Of a stretch of DNA of 24,782 nt, positions 2,360 through 22,606 are shown one piece after another. Numbering within the stretch: the first letter of the stretch is position 1; each line of letters opens with the position of its first letter. The notes under the pieces were generated by a model. It saw only the letters and a list, made by a program, of their open reading frames with translations. It ran no database searches and had not been told where the DNA came from. Origin of the DNA: Pseudobdellovibrionaceae bacterium (lineage in GTDB: Bacteria > Bdellovibrionota > Bdellovibrionia > Bdellovibrionales > Bdellovibrionaceae). The stretch lies in NCBI GenBank assembly GCA_041288045.1, contig JBGGMM010000018.1, forward strand, positions 1 through 24,782. The letters are read 5' to 3'. Both the position numbers and the translations under genes were made by a program.

Positions 2360-3481
2360 ATGAAGGAAATGTTAGAGTTTCTCAAAGATTGCGTTTCTTA
2401 TCCCTCAGGCGACAATGCTCAGCCGTTTCGCTTTCGAGCCGTATCGGATCGTGTGGTCGAGGTCTTTCATGACTCTCAAACAGCCTCACATCGCTTGAAT
2501 TTTAAAAACGTCTCGTCTCTGCTGACGCTGGGAACTCTGATTGAAACTCTTTCTCTCCGAGCCCAGAAAGAGAAAAAGATCATTCGAGTGAAGTATCATC
2601 TGGATCAATACGCCGACATGGATCTGCAAAAATGGGCGACCGTGGAGCTTCTGGATGCCACAGGTGAGCCTGACCCTTCCGAAGTTTTATTGTCAGAATC
2701 CCTCCAGATTCGGCATGTGGATCGAAGGCTTTATAAGACGGAACCTCTGGCTGAGGCCGACATTCAGTGGCTCACCAAAGAGGCTTCGAAAAACAGCAAT
2801 CTCAGTTTTTCTTTGAATGAAAAATTCAGCTCTCAATTGGAAAAACTTTTCCTCAAGCACGAAGAGGAAATCTGGAAAGACTCTCTGGTCGCTCAAGACG
2901 TGCTGTCCTGGATTCGATTCAATTCCAAACAGGCACTGGCCACGAGAGACGGGATGACTTGGGCTTCTTTGAATGTTCCGGCATTTCAAAAACCTCTTGT
3001 GAAGCTTTTTGTGAAATTTCCGAGAATTTACCAGCTGATCGCGCGCTTAGGTGGAACGAAAAACAATCGGCAAATGCTGATTCAGCACTTGGCGAAATCC
3101 GGGGGCTTTGGCTGGTTGGCTGTTCGGCGCACCGATCCTCAAAGTCTGGTGGATGCCGGCCGTACTTTTTTTCGCATGTGGCTTTATCTCAATCATCGGG
3201 GCTATTCGTTTCAGCCTTTGACGATGCTGAGCCTTTTGCCATTTCAAAGTCAGCTGAACCTTTTGCCCGAAGATTGGAGCCCGCAATTGATGGCTCTCTA
3301 TCCAAAGATCCTCGAACAAATACAAAAAGAAGCAATGATCGAACCCCAGTTTTTACCGCTCTGGGGATTTCGCGCTGGAAGAGTCGAAAAACCACTGACC
3401 TCAGAGAAGAGAACATTTCGCAAAAACATCGAAGAATTGATCATCCAAAGTGGCGGTTCCAAAGGGGGAGTGGAGAAATGA
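2360..3481 (+). CDS. Nitroreductase-fold FMN-binding oxidoreductase (Acg/Rv3131-like; resembles the nitroreductase half of ThiF-nitroreductase enzymes)
   Basis: YPSGDNAQPFRF (APSxxNxQPW-type motif), LGTLIETL, IRHVDRRLY and DAGRTFFRMWLYLNHRGYSFQPL (AGR..R.WL.....G...QP-type motif). The stop codon overlaps the next start (ATGA). Confidence 0.75.
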   Translation: MKEMLEFLKDCVSYPSGDNAQPFRFRAVSDRVVEVFHDSQTASHRLNFKNVSSLLTLGTLIETLSLRAQKEKKIIRVKYHLDQYADMDLQKWATVELLDATGEPDPSEVLLSESLQIRHVDRRLYKTEPLAEADIQWLTKEASKNSNLSFSLNEKFSSQLEKLFLKHEEEIWKDSLVAQDVLSWIRFNSKQALATRDGMTWASLNVPAFQKPLVKLFVKFPRIYQLIARLGGTKNNRQMLIQHLAKSGGFGWLAVRRTDPQSLVDAGRTFFRMWLYLNHRGYSFQPLTMLSLLPFQSQLNLLPEDWSPQLMALYPKILEQIQKEAMIEPQFLPLWGFRAGRVEKPLTSEKRTFRKNIEELIIQSGGSKGGVEK

Positions 3482-4794
3482 AATACCAGATCCAAGAAAA
3501 AGTGAAAGTCCGCCGCGGTGTTGGGCGGAAAATGTGGAATTTGATGGCCAAGCTTCCCCTGTGGATGCGAGCCCCTTTGGTGCGAAGACTCTTTGCTATT
3601 GATAACGATCTGCCAAAGGATTTGGTGTTTAAAGTTGCAGAGACCTATGAAGAAATCGAGCAGGCTTTCCGAGTGGCCTTTGAGGCCTTTCACGAAAGAG
3701 GCTTGGTCACTGAAACTGAAAATCGTCTGCGTGTGACCAAATTTCATGCCCTTCCAACAACCAGCATTTTGATTGCCAAAAAAGGCGAAGAAGTCATCGC
3801 CACACTCACTGTGGTGATGGATTCGGCGCTGGGTTTGCCTTTGGAAAAACTTTTTAATATCCAAGATGTCAAACGCAAGTCTTTGCGAGTGGCTGAAATT
3901 TCAACTCTCGCGATTAAACGAAATTTTCGTTCTCAAAGGGGACAGTTGCTGTTGCCTCTTTGTAATTTCATGTATCGATTTTGCCGAGAGTACTTGGGAG
4001 TTGACACCCTCGTGGCGGCCGTCCATCCGGAAGTTCAGGATTTTTATCGCTGTGTTCTTCTTTTTAATGATATTGAAGGCGGCGAAGTGAAGACATATGA
4101 GTTTGTGCAAGGAGCTGCCGCGGTGGCCAGCTGGCTTCGAATTTCAGATCTGCCTAAAAATTACATCAAGGTCTATGGTAAAAAGCCTCCCAAGCGAAAT
4201 CTCTATCAATTCTTTGTGCATCAGCCTTTTTCGCAGTTTCAATTTCCAGAAAAAAAGCCCTATTCTTGTTCGGATGTCAGCTTTTCGCCTTCACTCTTAG
4301 AGTATTTTTTTCGCCATAAATCAGAAGTGATGGAAGAGCTGACAAATCGAGAGAAAGAAATCATTTCGACTTCTTATTTTTATCCCGAATATCGCTCGGT
4401 GATTGTCGGTGACGCCGACACAAAGCCGCTTTTTCCAAGAGAGCAGGCCAGATTCACAGTGTTTTGCAAAGTTCGCTACCATTTTGAGAACTCCAGACGG
4501 ATTTACTCGGGCCATGCTTTGGAAGCTTCCAGGCAGGGCCTTAAGATCGCAGCTGAAAAGTTCCCAGAAGCCAGTGAAGGGCAGGGGATTGTCCTGTCTT
4601 TAGAGCTTGAAGATGGCTCCACGCTTCTTCTGGGGGGACATGTGACCTGGCTATCGGCTGAAGCCGGCCATTTTGGGGTTCGCTTGAATACCTTCGTTCC
4701 CAAGGCTTGGCAGGAGCACATTCGGGGCTTTGAAAATGAAGTTCTGATGAAAATTCAAAGCGAACAAGCTCGGACTTCTAGGCGCTTTCGATAA
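3478..4794 (+). CDS. FeeM-like N-acyl amino acid synthase (GNAT fold) fused to a C-terminal PilZ domain (438 aa)
   Basis: ATG at 3478 overlaps the upstream TGA and has a GGAG SD. FeeM-type motifs: FKVAETYEEIEQAFR, ATLTVVMDSALGLPLE, VAEISTLAI, AVHPEVQDFYRCVLLF. C-terminal PilZ signature REQAR (RxxxR) ... EASRQG, followed by GHVTW...FGVRL. Confidence 0.8.
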   Translation: MKYQIQEKVKVRRGVGRKMWNLMAKLPLWMRAPLVRRLFAIDNDLPKDLVFKVAETYEEIEQAFRVAFEAFHERGLVTETENRLRVTKFHALPTTSILIAKKGEEVIATLTVVMDSALGLPLEKLFNIQDVKRKSLRVAEISTLAIKRNFRSQRGQLLLPLCNFMYRFCREYLGVDTLVAAVHPEVQDFYRCVLLFNDIEGGEVKTYEFVQGAAAVASWLRISDLPKNYIKVYGKKPPKRNLYQFFVHQPFSQFQFPEKKPYSCSDVSFSPSLLEYFFRHKSEVMEELTNREKEIISTSYFYPEYRSVIVGDADTKPLFPREQARFTVFCKVRYHFENSRRIYSGHALEASRQGLKIAAEKFPEASEGQGIVLSLELEDGSTLLLGGHVTWLSAEAGHFGVRLNTFVPKAWQEHIRGFENEVLMKIQSEQARTSRRFR

Positions 4795-4880
4795 GCCCTT
4801 AGCAGTCATTGACCGCGTCAGAAGAGTGCGCTACCCCTAATAAGATCGGTTTTTATTTATTGGGGGAGGAATTTTTAGGC

Positions 4881-6719
4881 ATGGCGTCACCAGCTGTCTA
4901 TCAAACAATGCAAGTCCGCAATCAGGAACTTTTAAACTGGGTCCAAGAGATCGCCTCTCTCACTCAGCCTGATAAAATCCATTGGTGCGATGGCTCAGAG
5001 AAGGAAAATGCAGAGCTTTTGGACCTGATGGTTCAAGCTGGCACTTTAAAAAAACTCAATCCCGAAAAGCGACCTGGTTCTTACTTGGCCTGGTCGGATC
5101 CTAGCGATGTGGCCCGAGTGGAAGATCGCACTTTTATCTGCTGTGAGAAAAAAGAAGACGCAGGTCCCAACAACAATTGGACGGCTCCGGCTGACATGCG
5201 CAAAACCCTGGGTGGTCTTTTTCAAGGCTGCATGCAGGGGCGGACCATGTATGTGATTCCATTTAGCATGGGACCATTGGGTTCTGAAATCTCTCAAATC
5301 GGGGTTGAAATTTCAGATTCCCCTTATGTCGTGGTGAATATGCGAGTGATGACTCGCATGGGAGAAGAAGCTTTGAAGGTTTTGGGCGAGGGTCCTTTTG
5401 TCAAAGCCGTTCATTCGGTTGGCGCCCCTTTGAAACCAGGACAAAAAGATGTCATTTGGCCTTGCAACGCCAACACAAAATATATTGTTCACTATCCGGA
5501 AACTCGAGAGATTTGGTCTTTCGGTTCCGGTTACGGTGGAAACGCCCTGCTTGGCAAAAAATGTTTTGCTCTTCGAATTGCTTCGACCATGGGACGTGAC
5601 GAAGGTTGGCTCGCTGAGCACATGCTGATTTTAGGCGTGGAGTCTCCGCGAAGAGAAAAGAAATATGTCGCTGCTGCTTTTCCGAGTGCCTGTGGAAAAA
5701 CCAATTTTGCCATGCTCGTTCCGCCTGCCGCTTTGGATGGCTGGAAAGTTTCAACGATTGGCGATGACATTGCTTGGATCAAAATCAATTCACAGGGCGA
5801 AATGCGAGCCATCAATCCTGAAGCTGGATATTTTGGTGTGGCGCCGGGGACTTCCTTTAAAACAAATCCCAATGCCATGAAAACAATTGAGAAAAACACG
5901 ATTTTCACCAATGTGGCTTTGACCGAGGACGGGGATGTCTGGTGGGAGGGCATGAGTGAAATGCCGCCAGCCAACTTAACGGACTGGCAAGGTCAAAAGT
6001 GGACTCCTGGCTGTGGTCGCTTGGCGGCTCACCCCAATGCCAGATTCACAGTTCCTGCTTCTCAATGTCCCTCCATCGATCCGGATTGGCAGAATCCAGC
6101 CGGAGTGCCTCTGAGCGCCTTTGTTTTTGGCGGACGAAGAGCGGATACGATTCCTTTGGTTTTTGAACCCAAGTGTTGGACCGAAGGCGTTTACTTTGCG
6201 GCCACTATCGGCTCTGAGACAACAGCTGCTGCCACCGGCACTGTTGGGCAGGTCCGACGGGATCCGATGGCCATGCTGCCGTTTTGTGGCTACAATATGG
6301 CTGATTACTTTCAGCATTGGCTTTCCTTAGGACAAAAGCTGCTTGGCCAAAACTCAAAGCTTCCCAAAATTTTCATCGTCAATTGGTTTCGAAAAAACGA
6401 AGCTGGAAAATTTGTTTGGCCAGGCTTTGGGGATAATGCCCGGATCTTAAAATGGATGTTTGGTCGTATTGATGGCAAAGAAAAAGCCTCGATTTCCAAT
6501 TTTTTGGGCCTGCTGCCTTCCTTTAAAGATTTGGATTGGTCAGGTTCCACTTTTTCTGAGAAGGAATTTTTAGCAGCCACTCAGATCCACCAGCAAACAT
6601 GGGTCAAAGAAGCTCAGTCACACAAAGAATTTTTTCAACAGTTTGGCGGGCGTCTGCCATCTGAGTTTATCGGATTGCAAGAAAAGCTCGAATCCAGCGC
6701 CAAGCAACTTGAGGCTTAA
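4881..6719 (+). CDS. pckG: Phosphoenolpyruvate carboxykinase (GTP)
   Basis: [91 protein letters not shown] at 4865-4870. Confidence 0.97.
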
Positions 6720-6727
6720 GAGGATGT

Positions 6728-8416
6728 ATGAGTCAGGCAAAAACAGATCCCAACACAGTCAATGAAGCGCCGAATTTTTTAAAGCAAATCATTGAGAAAG
6801 ACTTGGAAACGAACAAAACGGGCGGCCAGGTGGTGACTCGTTTTCCGCCTGAGCCCAATGGCTATCTGCATTTAGGTCATGCCAAAGCGATTTGTTTGAA
6901 TTTTGGTTTGGCTGAAGATTATCACGGACGCTGTCATTTGCGCTTTGATGACACCAATCCCGCAACCGAAGATGTCGAGTACGTGCAATCGATTCAAACC
7001 GATGTCAAATGGTTAGGTTTTGACTGGCAAGACCACCTTTATTTTGCCTCTGATTACTTTCAGCAGCTCTATGATTGGGCCGAGGGCTTGATTCGTGAAG
7101 GCAAGGCCTATGTCTGCAGCCTCAACGAAGAAGAGCTTCGTCAGTACCGGGGCGATTTCACCACTCCCGGAAAGGACAGTCCTTACCGCAATCGCAGTGT
7201 TGAAGAAAATCTGGATCTTTTCCGTCGGATGAAAGCCGGGGAGTTTGCAGAAGGACAGCATGTGTTGCGTGCGAAAATCGATATGAAATCGCCCAATATG
7301 AACATGCGTGATCCACTTTTGTATCGGATCCGAAAAGTTCATCATCATCGCACTGGCGATCAGTGGAACATTTATCCCATGTATGATTACGCTCATCCGC
7401 TGTCCGATGCGATCGAAAAGGTGACCCATTCGATTTGCACTTTGGAATTTCAGGATCATCGGCCCTTTTATGACTGGTGCATTGAAAACGTGCCGACACC
7501 CGGGCATCCTCATCAGTACGAATTTGCTCGCATGAACATGACTTATTTGGTGATGAGCAAGCGCAAACTTTTGCAGCTGGTGCGTGAAGGTCTGGTCAGC
7601 GGCTGGGATGATCCCCGCATGCCGACCATTTCAGCCATTCGTCGTCGTGGTTACCGGCCTGAAGCCGTTCGTCTTTTTGCCAAAAGAATCGGAGTTTCCA
7701 AAGCTGAAAGTCTGATTGACTACGACATTTTGGAAAATTGCGTGCGCGAAGATCTGGACGCTGTCGCTCATCGGGCCATGGCCGTCTTAGATCCGATCAA
7801 AGTGGTGATTGAAAATTGGCCCGCCGATCGTGTGGATGAAATTCAATCTTCCATTCATCCCAAAAAAGCGGAGCTGGGCAAAAGAACACTCTACTTTAGC
7901 AAAGAAGTTTTTATTGATGCTTCTGACTTTAAAGAAAATCCAGATCCTGATTTCTTTCGGCTTTCGCCAGGCAAAGAAGTGCGCCTCAGAAATGCCTATG
8001 TGATCAAATGCAAAGAGGTCATCAAGGACTCCTCTGGCAAAATCACTGAACTGCGCTGTGATTATGATGCAGCCACGTTGGGTGGAAAACCGACTTCGGA
8101 TGGCCGCAAAGTCAAAGGCGTTATTCACTGGGTGTCTGCCGCCAAATGCATCGACGCCGAAGTTCGCATTTACGGCCGCCTTTTCAAAGTCCCAGATCCA
8201 GACAACGTGCCTGAGGGCAAAGATTTTAAATTCAATCTCAATCCCGATTCCTTGAAAGTGAATCGCCAGGCCAAGCTCGAATGGAGCCTCAAAGACGCAA
8301 GCCTTGAGCACCGATACCAATTTGAGCGAGTGGGCTACTTCTGCCTCGACAGCAAAGACTCCAAACCCGGAGCCCTGGTTTTCAACATGACCGTGGATCT
8401 TCCGACAGGCCACTAA
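6728..8416 (+). CDS. glnS: Glutamine--tRNA ligase (no C-terminal YqeY appendage)
   Basis: TRFPPEPNGYLHLGH (HIGH motif), RFDDTNP, HSICTLEF, VMSKRKL (KMSKS equivalent), GWDDPRMPT, KGVIHWVS, QFERVGYF. Confidence 0.97.
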   Translation: MSQAKTDPNTVNEAPNFLKQIIEKDLETNKTGGQVVTRFPPEPNGYLHLGHAKAICLNFGLAEDYHGRCHLRFDDTNPATEDVEYVQSIQTDVKWLGFDWQDHLYFASDYFQQLYDWAEGLIREGKAYVCSLNEEELRQYRGDFTTPGKDSPYRNRSVEENLDLFRRMKAGEFAEGQHVLRAKIDMKSPNMNMRDPLLYRIRKVHHHRTGDQWNIYPMYDYAHPLSDAIEKVTHSICTLEFQDHRPFYDWCIENVPTPGHPHQYEFARMNMTYLVMSKRKLLQLVREGLVSGWDDPRMPTISAIRRRGYRPEAVRLFAKRIGVSKAESLIDYDILENCVREDLDAVAHRAMAVLDPIKVVIENWPADRVDEIQSSIHPKKAELGKRTLYFSKEVFIDASDFKENPDPDFFRLSPGKEVRLRNAYVIKCKEVIKDSSGKITELRCDYDAATLGGKPTSDGRKVKGVIHWVSAAKCIDAEVRIYGRLFKVPDPDNVPEGKDFKFNLNPDSLKVNRQAKLEWSLKDASLEHRYQFERVGYFCLDSKDSKPGALVFNMTVDLPTGH

Positions 8417-8440
8417 CCGAACTTCCTTCCCAATTTTCGC

Positions 8441-8479
8441 GGGTGTCCGTTCTGCTTCAAACCAGCGGACACTCTTTTT
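8441..8479 (+). terminator. Rho-independent terminator of pckG-glnS
   Basis: GGGTGTCCG(tt)CTG-loop-CAGCGGACACTC followed by TTTTT, 25 nt after the glnS stop. Confidence 0.75.
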
Positions 8480-8671
8480 CCTCTCCTCTCACTGATTGCA
8501 CTTGAGCCCTGCCTTAAGCTTGCACTCCCTGCTTGTCATGGAGGTAGGTGGGGCTTTCGACAGCCGATTGGCAGCTGCTGTGGTCGTAAAGAAAAAGCTT
8601 CAGAGGGACTGACGAATTTGGGCACTGGTTGTCTGAATTTGCATTTCAGATCGAACTCAGTGGGGGCGTGC

Positions 8672-8687
8672 TGGCATACTGATTGAT
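8672..8687 (+). promoter_or_regulatory. Imperfect sigma54 (-24/-12) promoter TGGCAT-ACTGA-TTGAT
   Basis: Good -24 element and correct spacing, but GA instead of GC at -12; 34 nt upstream of ATG 8722. Confidence 0.35.
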
Positions 8688-8721
8688 AGATAGAGAGGGG
8701 AAGGGAACAAAGGAGTTTCCA

Positions 8722-9312
8722 ATGGAGTTCTTGTCTCGAAATTTCATGTTTTCAATCGTGATTTTGACTCTGTCGATGCAGGCCGGGGCTGCCGTCTCGT
8801 CGATTTCAGGTCCGGTGGTCAATAAGTGCAATCCGCGCGATGTTCAGCAAAAGCAAATCAAATTCAAATCACTTGAATACAGTGTCAAAGAATCCGAAGT
8901 GGATTTTGCACGTGTGGATCAAAATTATCAGGCTCAGCTGGCGAAATCCATCGATCGCAGTGTTGGCAATATGAAAAAGGCAGGAATTTCAGATAAAAAG
9001 ACTCTGCAGAAATATCGAGATTTGGAATCGGCACTTCGCAACTTTCAGGAGCGACCCGATGATGAGCTGGAATCAACGGTTTCTGAAAACTATTTCCAAT
9101 TTATCAATCAGCTCAATGCCAATCCTGACTTTAGCATCTCTATGGTCAATGCCAATTATGTCTGGCTCAAAGAATTGAAAAAAGAGCAGGCCCTCTGGCA
9201 AAAATCTTTTGCGACAAAAAGCAAAGTTTTTGCGGATTACGTTGAAGCTATCAATGGCTATCATCAACTTCAAAAAACCTGCAAACTGGGAAAATACCAG
9301 GCCAGCAATTAA
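8722..9312 (+). CDS. Hypothetical secreted, helical/coiled-coil-like protein
   Basis: SD AAGGAG before ATG 8722; signal-peptide-like N-terminus (FMFSIVILTLSMQAGA); two Cys near the termini; no recognised family. Confidence 0.75.
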   Translation: MEFLSRNFMFSIVILTLSMQAGAAVSSISGPVVNKCNPRDVQQKQIKFKSLEYSVKESEVDFARVDQNYQAQLAKSIDRSVGNMKKAGISDKKTLQKYRDLESALRNFQERPDDELESTVSENYFQFINQLNANPDFSISMVNANYVWLKELKKEQALWQKSFATKSKVFADYVEAINGYHQLQKTCKLGKYQASN

Positions 9313-9316
9313 AAAG

Positions 9317-10186
9317 CTAAAGTAAAGGCTTCGTATCAGACAGTCGAGTGTAGAGCTCGGGTCTTCGATCTCTGAAAAAACCAAAAGCAGCACGATGACG
9401 GCGGATTTGTTCCAAATCAAATTGGGCCGTGATCACTCCGGTCTGCTGTCGATCCAATTCGGCCACTTTGTTCCCGCGGTGATCCGTGATAAATGAATGC
9501 CCATAAAAAGTTTGTTGAGCTTCAGTGCCGATTCGATTGGCGGCGATCACAGGAACCACATTGCTGACCGCATGGCCAATCATCGCTCTTTGCCAAAGAT
9601 CCTTGGTGTCAAGATTCGGTTCCTCTGGTTCCGTTCCAATGGCAGTCGGGTAAAGAAGAAGATCAGCCCCCAAAAGCATCATGGATCTTGCCGCTTCGGG
9701 AAACCATTGATCCCAACAAATGCCCACACCGATTTTCCCATAAGCTGTGTTCCAAACCTGAAAACCCGTGTTCCCGGGACGGAAATAATATTTTTCTTCA
9801 TAGCCAGGGCCATCAGGAATATGTGATTTGCGATAAAGCCCTAGCACGCTGCCATCGGCATCAATCATCGCTAGGCTATTGTAATAGTGCTGACCTTCCC
9901 GTTCAAAAAATGAAATCGGCAGAACCACTTTCAAATCTTTTGCTAATTTTTGAAAATGCAAAATTGTCGGGTGGTTTTGAAAAGGCTGGGCCAGTTCAAA
10001 AAACTCATCTTTTTCAAAAGTGCAGAAATAGACATTTTCAAAAAGTTCCGGTGGAAGAATCACTTGCGCACCTTTTCGGTGCGCTTCATGCAATAGTTCA
10101 GTCACACGCAAAACATTTCGCTGTTGATTGGTGTTGAAATCACTTTGCAAAGCTGCCACTTGAACATTCGATCGATTGGTGCTCAT
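9317..10186 (-). CDS. aguB: N-carbamoylputrescine amidase (nitrilase superfamily)
   Basis: E-K-C triad in PPELF, YRKSHIPDGPGYEEKYYF and GICWDQWFPE; YPTAIG; directly downstream of the agmatine deiminase. Confidence 0.95.
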   Translation of the reverse strand: MSTNRSNVQVAALQSDFNTNQQRNVLRVTELLHEAHRKGAQVILPPELFENVYFCTFEKDEFFELAQPFQNHPTILHFQKLAKDLKVVLPISFFEREGQHYYNSLAMIDADGSVLGLYRKSHIPDGPGYEEKYYFRPGNTGFQVWNTAYGKIGVGICWDQWFPEAARSMMLLGADLLLYPTAIGTEPEEPNLDTKDLWQRAMIGHAVSNVVPVIAANRIGTEAQQTFYGHSFITDHRGNKVAELDRQQTGVITAQFDLEQIRRHRAAFGFFRDRRPELYTRLSDTKPLL

Positions 10187-10199
10187 TGATATCCTTTTT

Positions 10200-11252
10200 T
10201 CAGACCGGTTGTTGCTGACTAATACAATGGAAGGCCCCGCCCCCCGTCAAGATGGATTTTGCAGAAAGGCCAACAGTGCGGCGTTCTGGGAAAAAAGAGG
10301 CAATTTCCGCAACTGCGTCCTGGTCCCAATCGCTGCCATAAGTGGGAACAATCACAGCCGAGTTGCTGATGTAAAAATTCAAATAGCTGGCCGGCATCAC
10401 TTCATCTTCGAAATTCAGAACTTTGCCTGGAGAGGGAACTGTGAAAACCTGCAAAGCCTGGCCCTGGGCATCCGTCATTTGTCGTAAATCTCTCTCGATC
10501 TCTTGTAAAATTTCGGAGTTGGGATCTTGGGATCCCGAAGCTCGCATGCACAAAGCCTTTCCCGGAGCCACAAACCGAGCGATTGTGTCGATATGACCGT
10601 CGGTGTGATCATTGAGCAGACCCTCATTGAGCCAGAGAATCTTTTGGACTGCGAATGATTCTTTCAAACCCTTTTCCAGATCCGCTTGGGACAAGTCGGG
10701 GTTTCGATTGGGATTGAGAAGGCATTGCCTGCTGGTCAGGCAAGTCCCTTGGCCATCCACTTCGATGGAGCCGCCTTCGAGCACCCAAGGCACAGAAAAA
10801 TGGCGATGAGGAATTTTCTGAGCTGAAGCTTTGGCAATTTCTGCTGCCAGCTCTCGATCAAAAGGAAGATTGTATTTCTCACCCCAGCCATTGAATTGAA
10901 ATCGCAAGGAAGCCAGTCCTTCGGACCCCTGAAGGAAAATCGGTGCCGTGTCTCTCAGCCAGATATCACCGAAGGGAATGAGGTGCAGTTGGACTGGAAG
11001 ATTTCGCAAAGCCAATTCAGCTTTTGCACCAGCTTCTAAATCAGCAACAAGGACATTCAAGCGCTCGCCGCGAACTTTTGAGGATTGGGCATCGACATCA
11101 GCAATGGCTTTGCAAAATTCAATGAATTCTTCTTGTGCAGGTTCTAAGTCCTCTTGCCATAAGTGAGAGTGACTGGGCCAGGCAAGCCAAACAGAATCAT
11201 GTTTTTCCCATTCAGCGGGCATTCGATATCCAAAGGCACTTGGTGAATTCAT
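10200..11252 (-). CDS. aguA: Agmatine deiminase
   Basis: MPAEWEKH..WLAWP, DIWLRDTAP, FNGWGEKY, LEGGSIEVDGQGT, DHTDGHID, ASYLNFY, GGGAFHCISQQQP; ATG 11252 has an AAGGGG SD. Confidence 0.93.
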   Translation of the reverse strand: MNSPSAFGYRMPAEWEKHDSVWLAWPSHSHLWQEDLEPAQEEFIEFCKAIADVDAQSSKVRGERLNVLVADLEAGAKAELALRNLPVQLHLIPFGDIWLRDTAPIFLQGSEGLASLRFQFNGWGEKYNLPFDRELAAEIAKASAQKIPHRHFSVPWVLEGGSIEVDGQGTCLTSRQCLLNPNRNPDLSQADLEKGLKESFAVQKILWLNEGLLNDHTDGHIDTIARFVAPGKALCMRASGSQDPNSEILQEIERDLRQMTDAQGQALQVFTVPSPGKVLNFEDEVMPASYLNFYISNSAVIVPTYGSDWDQDAVAEIASFFPERRTVGLSAKSILTGGGAFHCISQQQPV

Positions 11253-11379
11253 TGATGTGATCCCCTTGTCGATTTTTTTGATCAAAAAAGGTCATCATTG
11301 AAATTGAAAAAAGAAAACTAAAAAACAAAAGAGCAATTATTCAATCGCGTGAATTTTTGATGAAGTGGAATATATACTC

Positions 11380-11398
11380 GAGCAAAGAATAACTGCTC
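11380..11398. promoter_or_regulatory. Inverted repeat GAGCA-N9-TGCTC, possible NtrC-like activator site
   Basis: The GCA-N9-TGC spacing equals that of the NtrC consensus TGCACCA-N3-TGGTGCA; it lies upstream of the sigma54 motif, closer than typical enhancers. Confidence 0.3.
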
Positions 11399-11420
11399 TA
11401 GATAAAAAGAAAAATTTCTT

Positions 11421-11436
11421 TGGATCAAGGATTGCA
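11421..11436 (+). promoter_or_regulatory. Sigma54 (-24/-12) promoter TGGATC-AAGGA-TTGCA of amtB-gltBD
   Basis: TGG-N10-GC with TTGCA at -12, about 57 nt upstream of the amtB ATG; amtB operons are classically sigma54/NtrC-controlled. Confidence 0.65.
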
Positions 11437-11493
11437 ATTTTTCATCGAAGCTAGATAGCATTCATGCGTTTGAATGAAAAAGGAGAAATAAGA

Positions 11494-12807
11494 ATGGATG
11501 CGCAAACAACAGTGAACACCGGGGACACCGCTTGGATGTTAATCTCCACAGCCTTGGTGCTTTTAATGACACCAGGCTTGGCTTTTTTCTATGCCGGAAT
11601 GGTAAGAGCAAAAAATGTGGTCTCTACACTTTTTCAAAGTGTCAGCGCTGTGGCTGTTGTCGGATTGCTCTGGGCAGTGGCGGGATACAGTTTGGTTTTT
11701 TCCGGCGATAAAGGCGGACTCATTGGAAATTTAGACCTCGCGTTTTTACAAGGCGTGGGTCTTGATCCGCATCCAACGTACGGGCCGACGATACCGCATG
11801 TTCTTTTCATGGCCTTTCAGATGATGTTTGCAGTGATCACTCCGGCTCTGATCACTGGAGCTTTCGCTGAGAGAATCAACTTTAAAGCTTGGATTCCATT
11901 TATGGCTTTGTGGGTTCTCGCGGTTTACATTCCAATTGCTCACTGGGTCTGGGGACCGAATGGTTGGATTGCGCAACTGGGGGGCTTGGATTTCGCTGGT
12001 GGCTTAGTGGTTCATATGAGTGCTGGCTTTTCCGCTTTGGCAGCCAGTCTTTATTTGGGAAGACGGGCGGATCATCGAGTCGTTCCGATGAAGAGCTACA
12101 ATATCGCCTTGGTTGTCTTGGGAACGGCCCTTTTGACATTTGGCTGGTTTGGTTTCAACGCCGGTTCAGCACTGGGGGCGAATGGCCTCGCGGCGCAAGC
12201 TCTGGCCACCACTTTCTTTGGTTGTGCAGCTGCCAGCTTTGCTTGGATGATGATGGATTGGGTTTTAGATAAACCCACATTGGTGGGCTCCAGTGTCGGA
12301 GCCGTGGCTGGACTTGTGGCGATCACTCCAGCTGCTGGTTATGTCACTCTACCTGCAGCTTTGTTGATTGGACTGTGTGCAGGCCTTGTTTGCAACGGAG
12401 CGGTTCGCGCAGTCAAAAAATATTTGCATGTGATGGATGACACCTTGGATGTTTTTGCCTGTCATGGAGTGGGCGGTCTTTTGGGAACAATTCTGACAGG
12501 AGTTTTTGCCTCGAAAGCTGTGAATCCTGCAGCCGCGAATGGCCTCTACTACGGTGAGAGCAAGGTTTTTGTAGCCAATTTGATTGCTGCTGGCGTGGTT
12601 GCTCTTTTTTCTGTGGCGGCCAGTTTTCTTTTGTTTCGAATAGTCGAAGTGATGGTGCCAGTCCGAGTTCCACGCGAGCTTGAAGAAAAAGGCCTGGATA
12701 CTTTGCATGGCGAAGAAATTTTGGCTTTGGACGAAGTCTACATTTCGGAAAATCGGCTTTCTGTTCATTCAACTCCGAAACTCCAAAGTGCGGAGATGTC
12801 CCACTGA
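11494..12807 (+). CDS. amtB: Ammonium transporter (Amt family)
   Basis: GDTAWML..TALVLLMTPGLAFFYAG, FQMMFAVITPALITGAFAER, LDFAGGLVVH and DDTLDVFACHG (twin His), GWFGFNAGS, GAVAGLVAITPAAG; SD AAGGAG before ATG 11494. Confidence 0.97.
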   Translation: MDAQTTVNTGDTAWMLISTALVLLMTPGLAFFYAGMVRAKNVVSTLFQSVSAVAVVGLLWAVAGYSLVFSGDKGGLIGNLDLAFLQGVGLDPHPTYGPTIPHVLFMAFQMMFAVITPALITGAFAERINFKAWIPFMALWVLAVYIPIAHWVWGPNGWIAQLGGLDFAGGLVVHMSAGFSALAASLYLGRRADHRVVPMKSYNIALVVLGTALLTFGWFGFNAGSALGANGLAAQALATTFFGCAAASFAWMMMDWVLDKPTLVGSSVGAVAGLVAITPAAGYVTLPAALLIGLCAGLVCNGAVRAVKKYLHVMDDTLDVFACHGVGGLLGTILTGVFASKAVNPAAANGLYYGESKVFVANLIAAGVVALFSVAASFLLFRIVEVMVPVRVPRELEEKGLDTLHGEEILALDEVYISENRLSVHSTPKLQSAEMSH

Positions 12808-15800
12808 TGAAATATCAGATGAGATATCGGCAGGGACTTTATGATGAAAGCTTTGAAAAGGATGCCTGTGGAATTGGCTTTATCCTCAATGCCCAAAGAC
12901 CTGCACAGCATGAAATCGTGCAAAAAGGCCTTGAGATTTTGGCTGGCCTTTCCCATCGCAGTGCCTTAGGGGCTGACAATGCCACGAGTGATGGTGCGGG
13001 ATTGATGTTGCAGATCCCAGATCTTTTTCTTCGCCAAGAATTAAAAAAGCTTTCTCTCACTGAAGATCTGCCGCCGCCTGGGCAATATGCTTTGGGGCAG
13101 ATTTTTTCACCGCCTGGTTTTTTTGCGCATACCTCTCATTGGACGCAATTGCAGCTTCAGGCCCAAGAGCTGGGATTTCGAATCTTTTGCTTGCGCCAGT
13201 TAAAAGTAGACTCCCAAGTCCTAGGCGAGCAAGCCAAATCAGTTGAACCCGACATTCATCAAATCATTTTGGTTCCCGAATCAGGACAGGCGGAAACGCA
13301 GGTTCGAAATCTCTTTCTTTTTCGCAGAAGATCCGAGTCTCTTTTTCGCCAGTGGAGCGGATGCCTGGATCCGATGACCGGCAAAGCGAAATCGCAGTTT
13401 TATTTCTGCAGTCTTTCCTTTGAAACAGTTATTTATAAAGGTTTGATGCAACCCAAAGATTTGGGCCGCTATTATGTGGATTTGCAAGACCCTCTCATGG
13501 TCAGCCAGCTGGCAATTGTGCATTCTCGCTTTAGCACCAACACTTTGCCAGCTTGGGAGTTGGCGCAGCCTTTTCGTTACTCTTGTCACAACGGAGAGAT
13601 CAACACCATCAAAGGCAATCGGCATTGGATGAAAGCCCGTGAAAAAGATTTTTGGCGGCAGATGCGGCTTTCGGAAGAAGCCCCGCTTCTCAGTGAAAAT
13701 CGCAGTGACTCGACAAGCTTGGATGAAGCTTTGGAGCTGCTTCTCATGCGGGGCTATTCTCTCACTCAGGCGATGATGATTTTGATTCCTGAGCCTTGGG
13801 AGGATTCAAGCCGACTTTGTGATGAGTTGAAGGACTTTTATCAATACTATTCGCTTCGAATGGAAGCTTGGGATGGGCCGGCGGCTCTGTGTTTTTCAGA
13901 TGGCCCTTTTTTTGGCGCCCGGCTGGATCGAAATGGTTTAAGGCCTTTTCGCTTTCAGCTTCTGAAAAACGGAACTTTGATGGGTGGATCGGAAGCTGGT
14001 GTTTTGCCGGTTGCCGATCAAGAAATTCGCCTCAAAGGCAGGTTGAAGCCAGGGCAGATTTTGCTTGTGGATCTTCGCTCTGGGAGGATGGATCTCAATG
14101 ACGAATCCAAATCCGTTTTGGCAAAAACAAAAGATATTCACAAGCTCTTGAAAGCTGAAATCCTCAAGCCCCAGCCAATCGAGTTCGCCCAAAACAAAAG
14201 GCAAACTTTGGATTGGAAAAATTTGCTTCGCTTTGGTTATCATTACGATGAAATCCTGCAAGTGCTTTTGCCGATGTTAAAAGACGGAGAAGAAGCCATC
14301 TCCTCGATGGGTGCAGATACTTCATTGGCTCTTTTAAATAATGAACCTCAGCTTTTGGATCGGTACTTTCGCCAGATGTTCGCGCAGGTGACGAATCCAC
14401 CAATTGATCCCATTCGTGAAAAATCAGTGATGTCGCTGATGACTTTCGTTGGCAGCAAGCCTTCGCCTTTTCAGTTGGAATCGGATGGCAAGAAGCGAAT
14501 TTTATTTTCCCATCCTTTGGTCAGCCCCCAGCAGCTGCATGGTTTGAAAATTGAAACTTTAGATGGAAGCTTTGAGTATCGGAGCCAAAGTCTTCAGGAA
14601 AGACTTGTGTCGCTCCAAGCTCAAGCTGAATTCTATGCGCAATCGGGAGCAGAAGTTTTGATTCTCTCGGATGAAAAATGCGACACACAAAGAGCTGCCA
14701 TTCCATCCTTGCTTTTGGTTTCAGCCATTCATTCGCATTTGATCCGAAAGCAATTGCGCTTGCGGCTGTCCCTCTTGGTGGACAGTGCTGAGCTTCGAAA
14801 TGTGCATCAAATGGCTTGCCTCTTGTCTTTTGGTGCTGATGCTTTGAATCCAAGGATTGTGCCTGATCTCATTTTGGAATTGCAAAAACAAAACCTCATT
14901 CCCCAGTCTCTTTCAACTGAGAATGTGATGAAAAACTATCAGCAGGCTGTTCAAAAAGGTCTGCTGAAAATTCTTTCGAAACTTGGAATATCCACTTTGC
15001 AGTCTTACAAAGGAGCTCAAACTTTTGAAATTCTCGGTTTGGGAGATGAAGTCGTCAGTCGCTATTTTCCGGGAACTGTGTCGCGAATTGGTGGATTGAA
15101 TCTGGAACAGATTGCTGAAGAAGTCAAAAGGCGATGGGAAAATCCATTGATTCCCGATGTGCAGGGACTGTGGGATTTGCCCTCCCGCGGCGATGTGCAC
15201 TATCGCAGTCAAGGGGAGCATCATCAATGGAATCCAATGACGATTGCAAAGCTTCAAATCGCAAGTCGCAATCAGGACATTGAAAGCTACCAGGAATTTT
15301 CAAAACTTTTGCAGGAATCAGATCGTGGCACTCTTCGTGGTGCCTTGAAGTGGAAAAAAGTTTCGAGTCCTCTCGAGCTCTCTCAGGTCGAGGAGGCAGA
15401 AAGCATTGTTCGCAGATTCACAACAGGGGCGATGTCTTTAGGAGCTCTCAGTTCGGAAGCTCATGAAACTCTGGCCATCGCCATGAACCGGATTCAAGCG
15501 AAAAGCAATTCCGGCGAAGGCGGCGAGGACCCACGTCGGTTTCAGCCTTTGGCAAACGGTGATCAAAAGAATTCGGCAATCAAACAAATTGCCTCGGCTC
15601 GATTTGGAGTGACGACGGATTATTTGACCAGTGCCAAAGAGCTGCAAATCAAAATGGCTCAAGGTGCAAAGCCTGGAGAGGGAGGTCAACTTCCTGGAGC
15701 CAAAGTAGATGCCGAAATTGCCAGAATTCGCCATTCCATCCCCGGGGTGACCTTGATCTCTCCACCTCCACACCATGATATCTATTCGATCGAAGATTTA

Positions 15801-17267
15801 GCGCAGTTGATTCATGATTTGAAGTCCGTCCATCCAGAGGCCGTGATTTCGGTTAAATTGGTTTCCGAAGCGGGCGTGGGGACGGTTGCCGCCGGAGTGG
15901 CTAAAGCCAAAGCGCAAAAAATCTTGATCAGTGGTGATGGCGGTGGCACAGGGGCTTCGCCGCTTTCATCCATTCAATCAGCTGGTGTGCCTTGGGAGCT
16001 GGGATTAGCAGAAGCACATCAAACACTGACTCGAAATGGCTTGCGAAGCCGAGTCCGGCTTGAAGCCGATGGTCAACTGCGCTCAGGCCGGGATGTGGCA
16101 TTAGCTGCGGCTTTGGGGGCTGATGAATTTGGATTTGCCACTGCCCCTTTGATCGTCCAAGGCTGCACAATGATGAGAAAATGCCATTTGAACACTTGCC
16201 CTGTTGGCATCGCCACTCAAGATCCTGAGCTGAGACAGAAATTTTCTGGATTGCCAGAGCACGTGGTGAATTATTTCTTCTTCGTTGCTGAAGAGCTTCG
16301 GCAAATCATGGCTTCTCTGGGAATTGCCAAAGTTGAGGATTTGATCGGCCGGTCTGACCTTTTGGATTTTGAGGCGCCTTCTCATCATTGGAAAGGGAAA
16401 AGCCTTGATCTCAGTCGACTTCTTGAAAGGGCCTCTGAGCTCGAGTTTCAAAGTGCTTTCGCGAAAACTGCGCGCAAGCTCGTCCATTTTTCTGAATCTT
16501 TCGATTTCGCAATTCAAAAAAGAATCAGCACTCGAGACCGCGCCGTCGGATCTGGGCTTTCGGGTGAAAGAAGCCGCCTGAAGAGGCAAAAACACTCCCT
16601 CTATCCCGCAGAGCATTTTCTCATGGGCTCGGCGGGTCAGTCCTTCGGGGCTTTTCTTGGGGAAGGATTGACCCTGAGGTTAGTGGGTGAAGCCAATGAC
16701 TATGTCGGCAAAGGACTGAGTGGTGGAAATCTGGTGATTCGGTTTTCACCTGATTATCAAGGAGAGAGCTTGGAATCAATTTTGGTTGGGAATACCTGTT
16801 TGTACGGGGCCACATCGGGGAAAGCTTTTTTCGCAGGTGGCGCTGGTGAAAGGTTTGCAGTTCGAAACAGCGGTGCTCTTTCTGTTGTCGAGGCCATCGG
16901 AGATCATGGCTGCGAGTACATGACGGGTGGAGCTGTGGTTGTTCTCAGCACTCCTGGCTTTAATTTTGCCGCTGGAATGTCGGGTGGCGTGGCCTTTATC
17001 TATGACGAAGAAGGTCTTTTTCTGGAGAGATGCAATCGCGGCCTAGTGGAAATCGAAAATCATTTCAATCTAGAAGATGAAAAATTTCTTTTTGAACTTT
17101 TATCTGACTTTGCCAATGAAACCGAAAGCAAAAAGGCCCAGTTGATTCTTTCAAATTGGCAAGCGATGAAGTCGAATTTCGTCAAAGTGATTCCAAGCGA
17201 ATACAAAAAAGCCAAAGCCTTGGCTAAAAACAATCTCCGGCCGGCAATGGAATCAGCAATCCTATGA
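12807..17267 (+). CDS. gltB: Glutamate synthase large subunit
   Basis: EKDACGIGF (catalytic Cys after propeptide), HSRFSTNT, HNGEINT, WDGPA, FAQVTNPPIDP, SNSGEGGED, KMAQGAKPGEGGQLPG, CTMMRKCHLNTCPVG (3Fe-4S), GXGXG domain (ANDYVGKGLSGG, AGERFAVRNSG). Confidence 0.97.
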   Translation: MKYQMRYRQGLYDESFEKDACGIGFILNAQRPAQHEIVQKGLEILAGLSHRSALGADNATSDGAGLMLQIPDLFLRQELKKLSLTEDLPPPGQYALGQIFSPPGFFAHTSHWTQLQLQAQELGFRIFCLRQLKVDSQVLGEQAKSVEPDIHQIILVPESGQAETQVRNLFLFRRRSESLFRQWSGCLDPMTGKAKSQFYFCSLSFETVIYKGLMQPKDLGRYYVDLQDPLMVSQLAIVHSRFSTNTLPAWELAQPFRYSCHNGEINTIKGNRHWMKAREKDFWRQMRLSEEAPLLSENRSDSTSLDEALELLLMRGYSLTQAMMILIPEPWEDSSRLCDELKDFYQYYSLRMEAWDGPAALCFSDGPFFGARLDRNGLRPFRFQLLKNGTLMGGSEAGVLPVADQEIRLKGRLKPGQILLVDLRSGRMDLNDESKSVLAKTKDIHKLLKAEILKPQPIEFAQNKRQTLDWKNLLRFGYHYDEILQVLLPMLKDGEEAISSMGADTSLALLNNEPQLLDRYFRQMFAQVTNPPIDPIREKSVMSLMTFVGSKPSPFQLESDGKKRILFSHPLVSPQQLHGLKIETLDGSFEYRSQSLQERLVSLQAQAEFYAQSGAEVLILSDEKCDTQRAAIPSLLLVSAIHSHLIRKQLRLRLSLLVDSAELRNVHQMACLLSFGADALNPRIVPDLILELQKQNLIPQSLSTENVMKNYQQAVQKGLLKILSKLGISTLQSYKGAQTFEILGLGDEVVSRYFPGTVSRIGGLNLEQIAEEVKRRWENPLIPDVQGLWDLPSRGDVHYRSQGEHHQWNPMTIAKLQIASRNQDIESYQEFSKLLQESDRGTLRGALKWKKVSSPLELSQVEEAESIVRRFTTGAMSLGALSSEAHETLAIAMNRIQAKSNSGEGGEDPRRFQPLANGDQKNSAIKQIASARFGVTTDYLTSAKELQIKMAQGAKPGEGGQLPGAKVDAEIARIRHSIPGVTLISPPPHHDIYSIEDLAQLIHDLKSVHPEAVISVKLVSEAGVGTVAAGVAKAKAQKILISGDGGGTGASPLSSIQSAGVPWELGLAEAHQTLTRNGLRSRVRLEADGQLRSGRDVALAAALGADEFGFATAPLIVQGCTMMRKCHLNTCPVGIATQDPELRQKFSGLPEHVVNYFFFVAEELRQIMASLGIAKVEDLIGRSDLLDFEAPSHHWKGKSLDLSRLLERASELEFQSAFAKTARKLVHFSESFDFAIQKRISTRDRAVGSGLSGERSRLKRQKHSLYPAEHFLMGSAGQSFGAFLGEGLTLRLVGEANDYVGKGLSGGNLVIRFSPDYQGESLESILVGNTCLYGATSGKAFFAGGAGERFAVRNSGALSVVEAIGDHGCEYMTGGAVVVLSTPGFNFAAGMSGGVAFIYDEEGLFLERCNRGLVEIENHFNLEDEKFLFELLSDFANETESKKAQLILSNWQAMKSNFVKVIPSEYKKAKALAKNNLRPAMESAIL

Positions 17268-18655
17268 AAAACACAAAAAGCTTTTATCAGATTCAAAGAC
17301 AGGAAATCCCCCGCCGTTCTGTCGGTGTTAGAAAAACGGACTGGAAAGAAGTCGATCAAACCCCAGACTTTCAGATGATGGCTCAGCAGGCTGAGCGGTG
17401 CATGGATTGCGGAGTTCCTTTTTGCCAAAGCGAAACCGGGTGTCCTGTTGACAATGATATCCCTGATTGGAATCAGCTGACCTCTCAGGGGCGTTTGCAC
17501 GAAGCTTTGACCCGTCTTCAAGCGACCAATAATTTTCCAGAAATGACCGGCAGATTGTGTCCAGCGCCCTGTGAATCCGCCTGTGTGCTGGGACTTCGCT
17601 CCGATCCTGTGAATATTCGAGCCATCGAATGGGGGCTGGTTGAAGAGGGATTTCGCCAGGGTTGGATTCAGCCCAAGCCTGCAGTGAAAAAAACCGAAAG
17701 AAAAATTGCGATCATTGGCTCTGGCCCAGCCGGTCTCGCAGCTGCACAACAGCTCGCGAGGCAAGGTCATTCAGTGACAGTGTTTGAAAAAGAAAGGCAA
17801 GCTGGCGGTCTTCTTCGCTACGGAATTCCAGATTTCAAATTGCAAAAATCCTGGGTGGATCGGCGGTTGACTCAGCTGCAGGCTGAAGGGGTTGAATTGA
17901 AAACCTCTACTTGTTTGGGAAAAGATTTTGACTATCAAGATTTGCAAAAAAATTTTGAGGTTGTGGCGCTCGCCATGGGAGCTGAAAAGCCCCGGGATCT
18001 GCTGGTTCCTGGACGGGAACTGAGGGGCATTCATTTAGCAATGGATTATCTGAAAGATCAAAATCGCTTTTTCTCAGGAGAAAGCCAGGATCTTCAGATC
18101 AATGCTCGTGGCAAGCGAGTGGTCATCCTCGGAGGCGGAGATACGGGCTCCGACTGTTTAGGGACGGCTTTGCGCCAAGAGGCTTTGAGTGTCGTTCAAT
18201 TTGAAATCCAAGCCCAGCCATCTGAATTACGAAGTGAAAAGACTCCCTGGCCCTTCTGGCCAATGAAGCTCAAAGTTTCTCATGCTCATGAAGAGGGAGG
18301 CAGTCGGCAGTGGAGCTTTTCCACGGAGGCCTTCCTTGGGAGTGGGGGCCGAGTTGAAAAGTTAGCCGTGCGAAAATTAGGAGACAAAGGCTCTGATTCG
18401 CTCATGACCTGGGAAGCAGATCTGGTTTTTTTAGCTCTTGGATTCACCGGCATCCAAAGAGACTATCTCAAATCCATTCCAAATTTGAAAATCAGTGAGA
18501 ATGGCCGCATTCAAACGGATCAGTTTCAAACGTCTGAACCAGGAGTCTTCGCATGTGGAGACAGTCAAAGAGGAGCGAGTTTGATTGTTTGGGCGATTGC
18601 AGAGGGACGAAAGATGGCGACTGCGATTGAAGCCTATCTGGCAAAAGAAAAATAA
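17264..18655 (+). CDS. gltD: Glutamate synthase small subunit
   Basis: RCMDCGVPFC..GCP, NNFPEMTGRLCPAPCESAC, GSGPAG, GGLLRYGIPDFKL, GGGDTGSDC, RGASLIVWAIAEGR; ATGA overlap with gltB. Confidence 0.97.
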   Translation: MKNTKSFYQIQRQEIPRRSVGVRKTDWKEVDQTPDFQMMAQQAERCMDCGVPFCQSETGCPVDNDIPDWNQLTSQGRLHEALTRLQATNNFPEMTGRLCPAPCESACVLGLRSDPVNIRAIEWGLVEEGFRQGWIQPKPAVKKTERKIAIIGSGPAGLAAAQQLARQGHSVTVFEKERQAGGLLRYGIPDFKLQKSWVDRRLTQLQAEGVELKTSTCLGKDFDYQDLQKNFEVVALAMGAEKPRDLLVPGRELRGIHLAMDYLKDQNRFFSGESQDLQINARGKRVVILGGGDTGSDCLGTALRQEALSVVQFEIQAQPSELRSEKTPWPFWPMKLKVSHAHEEGGSRQWSFSTEAFLGSGGRVEKLAVRKLGDKGSDSLMTWEADLVFLALGFTGIQRDYLKSIPNLKISENGRIQTDQFQTSEPGVFACGDSQRGASLIVWAIAEGRKMATAIEAYLAKEK

Positions 18656-22546: not shown

Positions 22547-22606
22547 ATAAAACCCCCATACGTGCATGCTTGTGCATTTGAATTGAAATCTATCTTCTAT
22601 CGATTT

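Follow-up and report, generated by a model that had tools for sequence, protein, structure and literature searches.

Does a stand-alone flavin oxidase gene that runs directly into the gene of an acyltransferase with a PilZ tail encode a self-contained route to a modified amino acid, does it depend on a partner encoded elsewhere, and might the second messenger cyclic di-GMP (c-di-GMP) act on it? The question is raised by positions 2360–4794 of a 24,782-nucleotide stretch of DNA from a Pseudobdellovibrionaceae bacterium (GCA_041288045.1; the whole stretch is called the window), which is contig C18 of a 2.89 Mb genome with 83% completeness. An initial annotation had described a nitroreductase and an FeeM-like N-acyltransferase-PilZ fusion "lacking the ThiF partner" of oxazolone biosynthesis, ThiF being either supplied in trans or not needed. 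That partner is present: an unlinked contig of the same genome (G000:C149:34625–35497, minus strand) encodes a 290-amino-acid (aa) ThiF of the oxazolone-type family. The FDO gene of the window (Acg-type monomeric flavin oxidase fold), the NAS-PilZ gene (NAS standing for N-acyl amino acid synthase) and the C149 ThiF gene probably constitute a three-enzyme, TyzA/B/C-like pathway to N-acyl-amino-acid oxazolones or their ring-opened dehydro counterparts, and the initial step is possibly adjusted by c-di-GMP. Folds, motifs, the gene found in trans and co-occurrence across genomes support this interpretation.

Both window genes lie on the forward strand. The open reading frames (ORFs) of 373 aa (FDO, 2360–3481) and 438 aa (NAS-PilZ, 3478–4794) are present as initially described, the stop of the first and the start of the second overlapping in the ATGA at 3478–3481; a GGGGGAG ribosome-binding site lies 7 nucleotides upstream of the second ATG, and the arrangement (3464–3481) suggests translational coupling. 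GC content and third-position GC (GC3) of the pair are comparable to those of the neighbouring genes. A contig of run X1, possibly the source sample, covers 2739–3764 across the gene junction with one differing letter and no gap, and the run containing the window sequence is a soil metagenome. The two genes match opposite ends of PRK14852, a family of NAS-ThiF-FDO tri-fusions, the middle of which is matched by the C149 ThiF (E 4e-52).

The identification of the second gene as an FeeM-like acyltransferase with a PilZ tail is borne out by both family and fold. The catalytic domain (aa 62–219; 3661–4134) matches Pfam FeeM (PF21926) with an E-value of 1.3e-34 (119.7 bits against a cut-off of 27), and FeeM is the top fold match of the structure model (pLDDT 87.2, pTM 0.87; Foldseek E 1.2e-9; VIA Z 20.1, root-mean-square deviation (rmsd) 2.1 over 175). 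Glu140 (codon 3895–3897) aligns with the active-site Glu in the AEVVQFA stretch of FeeM, the catalytic Glu being Glu95 in FeeM and Glu103 in Nas354; the residue is conserved as Glu in 171 of the 172 family proteins. The PilZ domain (aa 321–406; 4438–4695) matches PF07238 (E 2.2e-5, 25.1 against a cut-off of 22.5 bits), and residues 318–405 of the model superimpose on the c-di-GMP-bound PilZ protein PA0012 (Z 13.2, rmsd 1.9 over 85). The fusion belongs to a large family of 1062 clusters (50% identity) scoring at an E-value of 1e-30 or lower; of the 150 top-scoring clusters, almost all align over their full length. A scan of genome contigs with the NAS protein gave no match. A second FeeM-like match in the window's genome (C181, 30.9 bits), which by its look we take to be an OlsB-type GNAT, scores nothing on the NAS profile. 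Among more distant relatives, a 303-aa protein without PilZ on a Methylorubrum populi plasmid (L222, NZ_AP014813.1; 35% identity) belongs to an operon whose other genes encode a methyltransferase, an FAD oxidoreductase, a tryptophan halogenase and an amidase, and a 949-aa protein (P0079) is a methyltransferase-ThiF-FeeM (NAS) fusion with a weak PilZ-like tail.

For the first gene, the description as an Acg-type nitroreductase holds for the fold and fails for the family. The structure model (pLDDT 90.3) is most similar to Acg (2YMV; Z 29.6, rmsd 2.9 over 300 residues; next match 15.0), and the alignment of these 300 residues agrees with the hallmark of the FDO subgroup, a single chain of 340–370 aa that mimics a homodimer. 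The protein stays below all NCBIfam cut-offs, scoring 90 bits against the 199 required for the Acg family proper (NF047509, FDO-B) and 84 bits on the ThiF-FDO fusion family PRK14851. Position 18, His in Acg 2YMV, is Asp within an SxDNxQP motif both in the window FDO and in 52 of 52 ThiF-linked FDOs, which had been pre-filtered on an N-terminal motif permitting D, G or H at this position; S16, D18, N19, Q21, G58, R118, R122, G267, W274, P286, R338, G340 and R354 are common to all of these proteins. In a tree of 87 FDO sequences, which comprises proteins of at least 280 aa carrying the N-terminal motif and does not include TyzC or OxzB, the FDOs of the lineage form a clade of their own (support 0.98), the ThiF-linked proteobacterial FDOs another (1.0), and both sequences that pass the Acg cut-off fall into a third group (0.96), the deeper nodes being left unresolved (0.43–0.63). 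The function of the window FDO is assigned from its context and not from the tree. Its eight closest relatives are 41–47% identical. A metagenome scan with close FDOs returned 18 loci, all distant (22–37%) and none with NAS, and an FDO-alignment search found no fused form among 7999 scored candidates of 771–2200 aa, a weak negative because ThiF-FDO fusions of 650–700 aa fall outside that range. One 664-aa fusion (L226:5358–7352; G121:C56) carries FDO N-terminally and ThiF C-terminally, the order opposite to that of the OxzB/TrzS-type fusions observed here.

The window holds no ThiF gene, as initially stated, and a genome-wide search of the kind that the initial annotation had called for matches only on C17 and C149. 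The C17 match (90 bits on the ThiF profile) presumably represents a TcdA-like protein. The C149 ThiF exceeds the cut-off of the NCBIfam family PRK08223 (314 vs 266 bits), a threshold likewise exceeded by the ThiF part of ThiF-FDO fusions (408 and 447 bits) and by that of a Nitratidesulfovibrio NAS-ThiF-FDO tri-fusion (354 bits); the canonical ThiF, MoeB and TcdA models score 60–90. It falls within a clade with ThiF-FDO fusions in a tree of 119 ThiF domains (support 0.99). In a tree of 52 sequences its clade of nine members (support 1.0) includes the ThiF of L118, which is coupled to a NAS-PilZ gene 44% identical to that of the window, and those of L238 and L239, which lie at most 1.5 kb from FDO; among named ThiFs, the most similar (62%) belongs to a Pseudobdellovibrionaceae genome. 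The tetranucleotide profiles of C18 (r 0.989) and C149 (r 0.992) correlate with that of the genome to a similar degree as those of other contigs (median 0.984 of 65), and by composition C149 thus fits the window's genome. The cut-off and the grouping speak for the supply of ThiF in trans. A second, more distant ThiF clade (L044, L048 and L056; 113–120 bits, support 0.999) is likewise paired with NAS genes.

The dependence of FDO on both partners is also suggested by their distribution. With thresholds of 1e-35, 1e-70 and 1e-30 set in these searches, FDO carriers number 25, ThiF carriers 29 and NAS carriers 53 among 172 family genomes. ThiF occurs in 22 of the 25 FDO carriers (23 if a split gene in G029 is counted) vs 7 of the 147 other genomes, NAS in 24 of the FDO carriers vs 29 of the others, and 28 of the 29 ThiF carriers have NAS. 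Four of the 172 genomes had contributed to the profiles; without them, ThiF is found in 18 of 21 FDO carriers. In a set of 61 relatives, the 12 genomes whose FDO match is strong (E <1e-40) all match NAS and ThiF as well, the ThiF of G029 being partial. FDO and ThiF are each present in 12 of 39 genera, and genus g10, with 43 genomes, many of them closed, contains no FDO, one ThiF and two NAS carriers. The genes are nested in the order NAS, ThiF, FDO, as would suit a pathway whose FDO depends on both other enzymes, and the co-occurrence at genome level disfavours the option that ThiF is not needed. Taken with the C149 gene and the ThiF tree, it supports the earlier guess of an oxazolone or oxidised N-acyl amino acid pathway.

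Physical linkage is far looser than co-occurrence. Of 43 FDO matches, only five have NAS and three have ThiF at a distance of 1 kb or less, six are within 5 kb of ThiF, one has both partners within 5 kb and 34 have no NAS within 5 kb; 18 of 54 ThiFs lie within 1 kb of NAS. These adjacency counts are lower bounds, because the thresholds miss divergent FDOs (e.g. those in L243 and L249) and because some contigs are short. One named locus duplicating another was excluded from trees and counts. Conservation of the gene pair is loose. The FDO-to-NAS order of the window recurs in L057, L225, L227 and L243, the latter two with ThiF alongside. In L243, the NAS is 49% identical to that of the window but split in two frames, the FDO is 24% identical and ThiF stands head-to-head. 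As the pathway genes are mostly unlinked, cluster-based mining misses the pathway in this lineage.

The best plasmid match of both genes is pBdHAGR2 of the cultured Bdellovibrio sp. HAGR004 (AP029178.1; L216 and L217), where FDO, NAS-PilZ and ThiF lie within ~11 kb spanning the plasmid origin. The annotation of the plasmid gives its FDO as a CDS of just 166 aa, although the open frame there extends over 366 aa. Two UGT-like glycosyltransferases, a dTDP-glucose dehydratase and a LolA-like/ABC exporter are encoded near these genes, and it is possible that the plasmid's product is glycosylated.

How the three enzymes would work together can be modelled on characterised systems, which are cited here and below from passages of the respective papers. 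Acylation, ATP-dependent cyclisation and FMN/O2-dependent desaturation have been shown for OxzAB (bioRxiv 10.1101/2020.06.11.147165), TyzACB (PMC10404671) and TrzAS (PMC12856293). By analogy, NAS-PilZ would use Glu140 to acylate an amino acid, probably an aromatic one, the C149 ThiF would activate the carboxylate by ATP-dependent adenylation and close the oxazolone ring, and FDO, using FMN and O2, would introduce the alpha-beta double bond; cyclisation and desaturation may take place in either order. The initial annotation had named acyl-acyl carrier protein (acyl-ACP) as the donor; this has been proposed for FeeM and Nas354 (PMC4897644), whereas OxzA, TyzA and TrzA use acyl-coenzyme A (acyl-CoA), so that the donor may be either and need not be acyl-ACP. 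The end product may be an oxazolone or, as in stieleriacine-type producers (PMC12479983), a ring-opened dehydroamino acid, and c-di-GMP might tune the acylation step. We consider the three-enzyme chemistry itself to be likely with good confidence.

The chemistry and the component parts, a stand-alone FDO and a NAS-PilZ fusion, are already known, and the novelty initially attached to both is not upheld. According to passages of PMC10404671, TyzA, TyzB and TyzC (Rv2336, Rv2338c and Rv2337c) are likewise three separate proteins, an N-acyltransferase of FeeM-like fold, a stand-alone ThiF and a stand-alone FDO, and TyzC, with 372 aa against 373 aa here, resembles the window FDO by description rather than by sequence comparison. 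The Tyz genes are clustered and those passages describe no PilZ in TyzA, whereas here ThiF is on another contig and NAS carries PilZ. Nas343 and Nas354, two metagenomic proteins of 394 aa that make N-myristoyltyrosine and need Glu103 (PMC4897644, 2016), share with the window protein the architecture of a NAS domain, a ~80-aa linker, a C-terminal PilZ and the catalytic Glu; they lie outside a biosynthetic operon, the passages describe neither FDO nor ThiF, and c-di-GMP control was only proposed. The fusion family as a whole is large. OxzAB and TrzAS comprise the same set of domains, and it is with ThiF-FDO fusions of this architecture that the C149 ThiF groups; in both, ThiF and FDO are fused and adjoin the acyltransferase, whereas here they are unfused and unlinked and FDO falls into a separate clade. 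Because the ThiF on C149 is neither adjacent nor fused to the FDO on C18, unlike in the description of PMC12856293, the locus was filed as a pathway variant. Planctomycetota producers (PMC12479983) also combine NAS, ThiF and a nitroreductase, have several NAS paralogs in a genome and show some dispersal of the genes, but keep ThiF and nitroreductase adjacent or in one cluster; the words "PilZ" and "Bdellovibrio" are absent from the main text of that paper. A nucleotide second messenger is tied to a GNAT-fold acyltransferase in Myxococcus xanthus PixB, too, which bears two PilZ domains and whose substrate is not known (PMC8316039), and in NasP, which is activated by cyclic AMP (PMC4897644). What is added here is the identified ThiF in trans, the scattered, paralog-rich layout in this lineage and the regulatory question.

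Several observations weigh against a three-enzyme pathway. The two ThiFs nearest to that of C149 (69% and 64%) lack any partner in the surrounding 3 kb; the one with 64% identity belongs to G006, a 99%-complete genome that retains two oxazolone-type ThiF genes (L100 and L101) with neither a NAS-PilZ nor an FDO match. The label "OxzB-type" rests on architecture and NCBIfam families and not on sequence comparison with OxzB, TyzB, TyzC or Nas354. The closest NAS (65%, L223) has no FDO or ThiF neighbour, and the closest FDO with context (37%, L229) has no NAS neighbour. Three of the 25 FDO carriers miss the ThiF threshold: G029 has ThiF in two pieces at contig ends, G150 (10% contaminated) and G183 (89% complete, with an FDO frame ending at 291 aa) have only a weaker ThiF; and the Fisher p of 9e-19 for co-occurrence is an overstatement since kin are not independent. 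The unpartnered ThiFs of G006, together with the coupling of only FDO and NAS here, favour a self-sufficient two-gene operon in which FDO would directly desaturate the NAS product to an N-acyl-dehydroamino acid, the C149 ThiF acting elsewhere, as do the ability of TyzC to desaturate uncyclised substrate, the step order in TyzACB not being obligate (PMC10404671), and the producers of stieleriacine, kyonggic acid and thalassotalic acid, for which PMC12479983 reports no oxazolones. Yet FDO is almost always accompanied by this type of ThiF (22 or, with the split G029 gene, 23 of 25 carriers), producers of dehydrotyrosines also have ThiF beside the nitroreductase (PMC12479983), and in TrzS cyclisation must precede desaturation (PMC12856293), so we regard self-sufficiency as unlikely. 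Even less probable, and in our view hardly to be expected, is an Acg/FDO-B-like flavoprotein with an unrelated substrate that lies beside NAS incidentally. The tree, which joins the window FDO to neither the ThiF-linked clade (1.0) nor Acg (0.96), can be read in this sense, as can the Acg family and Acg fold being its top matches and the 34 of 43 FDO matches remote from NAS. However, the Acg score is less than half of the cut-off, ThiF-fused FDOs score much the same on that family (98–128 bits), Acg 2YMV is the nearest solved homologue of TrzS as well (PMC12856293), Asp18 unites the window protein with the 52 ThiF-linked FDOs and not with Acg, and the FDO-to-NAS order recurs at the four loci named above.

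The regulatory part of the proposal faces contrary evidence of its own. The RxxxR motif of the PilZ domain is intact (R321–R325; 4438–4452), but the second motif reads E-A-S-R-Q-G (E-A-S-x-x-G, 349–354; 4522–4539) in place of the canonical [D/N]hSxxG (bioRxiv 10.1101/814665), with Glu for D/N and Ala for the I/L/V of "h", Ser and Gly being kept; the domain is thus not classed as canonical. Across 172 aligned relatives, R321 is conserved in 136, R325 in 170, S351 in 156, G354 in 166 and W411 in 165, and position 349 is D in 63, E in 52 and N in 33; both canonical motifs are found in only 65 of the 172, the Glu variant in 48, and 59 lack one or both motifs even if Glu is allowed. Nas354 gave product in ordinary Escherichia coli, and the passages of PMC4897644 report no manipulation of c-di-GMP. 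If the chemistry holds and PilZ does not gate it, being a structural or degenerate appendage or binding c-di-GMP with no change in rate, the deviating motif would be accounted for, and so would a paralog clade without the first Arg (e.g. L063, L065 and L067–L069), the proteobacterial pathway NAS proteins of ~260 aa without any PilZ, and the M. xanthus PixB, whose acetyltransferase domain suffices in growth (PMC8316039). Against this stand the retention of R325, S351, G354 and W411 across proteins just 30–45% identical, the Glu variant being typical of nearly the whole clade around the window's NAS-PilZ, and PA2989, in which Ser replaces D/N and c-di-GMP is still bound (passages including bioRxiv 10.1101/814665). 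As RxxxR is intact, the PA2989 variant binds, and the genome has 5 GGDEF and 13 PilZ matches, c-di-GMP binding by the window PilZ appears plausible and is slightly favoured. Real c-di-GMP control of pathway flux is put forward only tentatively, and a PilZ domain that does not gate is a serious contender.

Upstream of the pair, the divergent minus-strand gene at 108–2000 encodes a hybrid sensor kinase (Pfam CHASE5, HisKA, HATPase and receiver), a neighbour and possible regulator. A role as conserved partner is unsupported: its best matches in related loci are 28–37% identical over the kinase core only, and kinases lie within 2.5 kb of pathway genes at only four places among 102 related loci. 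A promoter and terminator scan gave counts close to chance expectation (2 against 2.9 and 5 against 4.3), and upstream repeats are short and two-copy only. In its –1 frame, the FDO gene contains 220 codons uninterrupted by a stop (2821–3477), a run that continues in frame into NAS; it was considered as an overprinted gene or frameshift fusion and rejected as chance. Such runs are rare, with 4 of 1194 long ORFs of the genome and 0 of 5000 codon resamplings reaching 219 codons. Nevertheless, two FDOs from the same genus (among 50 examined) contain comparable runs, of 322 and 241 codons, that show no similarity to it, and as 5 of 118 other ORFs in those two genomes reach 219 codons, the resampling null is too lenient. 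The frame has no Pfam match, and the NAS relatives share the start position of the window NAS.

Downstream, 4809–18655 holds ordinary neighbours, including by Pfam an agmatine deiminase and a carbon-nitrogen hydrolase (9317–11285) and an ammonium transporter (11464–12807), and what we take to be phosphoenolpyruvate carboxykinase, glutaminyl-tRNA ligase and glutamate synthase subunits. Further on, where GC content is 0.52 around 21–22 kb, a minus-strand gene (20957–22567), whose secreted product weakly matches a Chlamydia-PMP-like repeat, diverges from a MetA-pathway-type barrel gene (22786–23718, plus strand).

Two further gene families accompany the pathway in relatives. A family of ~500-aa proteins with TPR repeats and, apparently, a winged helix at the C terminus is encoded 12 times in the 102 loci at no more than 2.5 kb from a NAS, ThiF or FDO gene (L063:6611–8056, L068:6718–8193, L087:7464–9020, L225:2284–3777, L228:3497–5056, L235:3771–5291 and six more), often together with a secreted lipoprotein-like gene (11). 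G002 has 16 matches, five of them beside pathway genes, G121 six, three of them beside, and the window's genome none; these proteins are candidate regulators or receptors. An XRE-HTH/DUF4423-like regulator of ~320 aa also directly adjoins ThiF, FDO or NAS genes (L101:4742–5746, L223:7349–8404, L241:10173–11183, L055, L064, L104, L106 and L107); 11 loci match its profile, three of them being the seeds, and the window's genome has just a 24.6-bit match.

Literature searches returned no account of a scattered, paralog-expanded pathway in Bdellovibrionota, although such organisms may already be listed in the table of OxzB homologues (bioRxiv) or in the networks coloured by taxon in PMC12856293 and PMC10404671, nor of a cultured Bdellovibrio plasmid with all three genes, subscription papers being mostly outside the search. 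Nothing combining Bdellovibrio, PilZ, c-di-GMP and acyltransferase was found and, at the level of titles and listings, no test of c-di-GMP control of a NAS-PilZ protein. PMC12856293 describes the physiological function of bacterial oxazolones as unresolved, and the locus makes both this function and c-di-GMP control experimentally approachable, as it offers three small, soluble-looking genes, a mutable ligand motif and a cultured Bdellovibrio plasmid. A broader scenario, which we offer as speculation and think rather improbable, is that in Bdellovibrionota c-di-GMP-gated NAS-PilZ paralogs (up to nine per genome) feed a shared, scattered toolkit of cyclase and desaturase, yielding a library of oxazolone or dehydro lipid signals that would be read by the adjoining TPR-winged-helix, XRE/DUF4423 or kinase regulators. 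If true, such a paralog-fed lipid library would link an intracellular second messenger directly to a lipid signal in predatory lineages.

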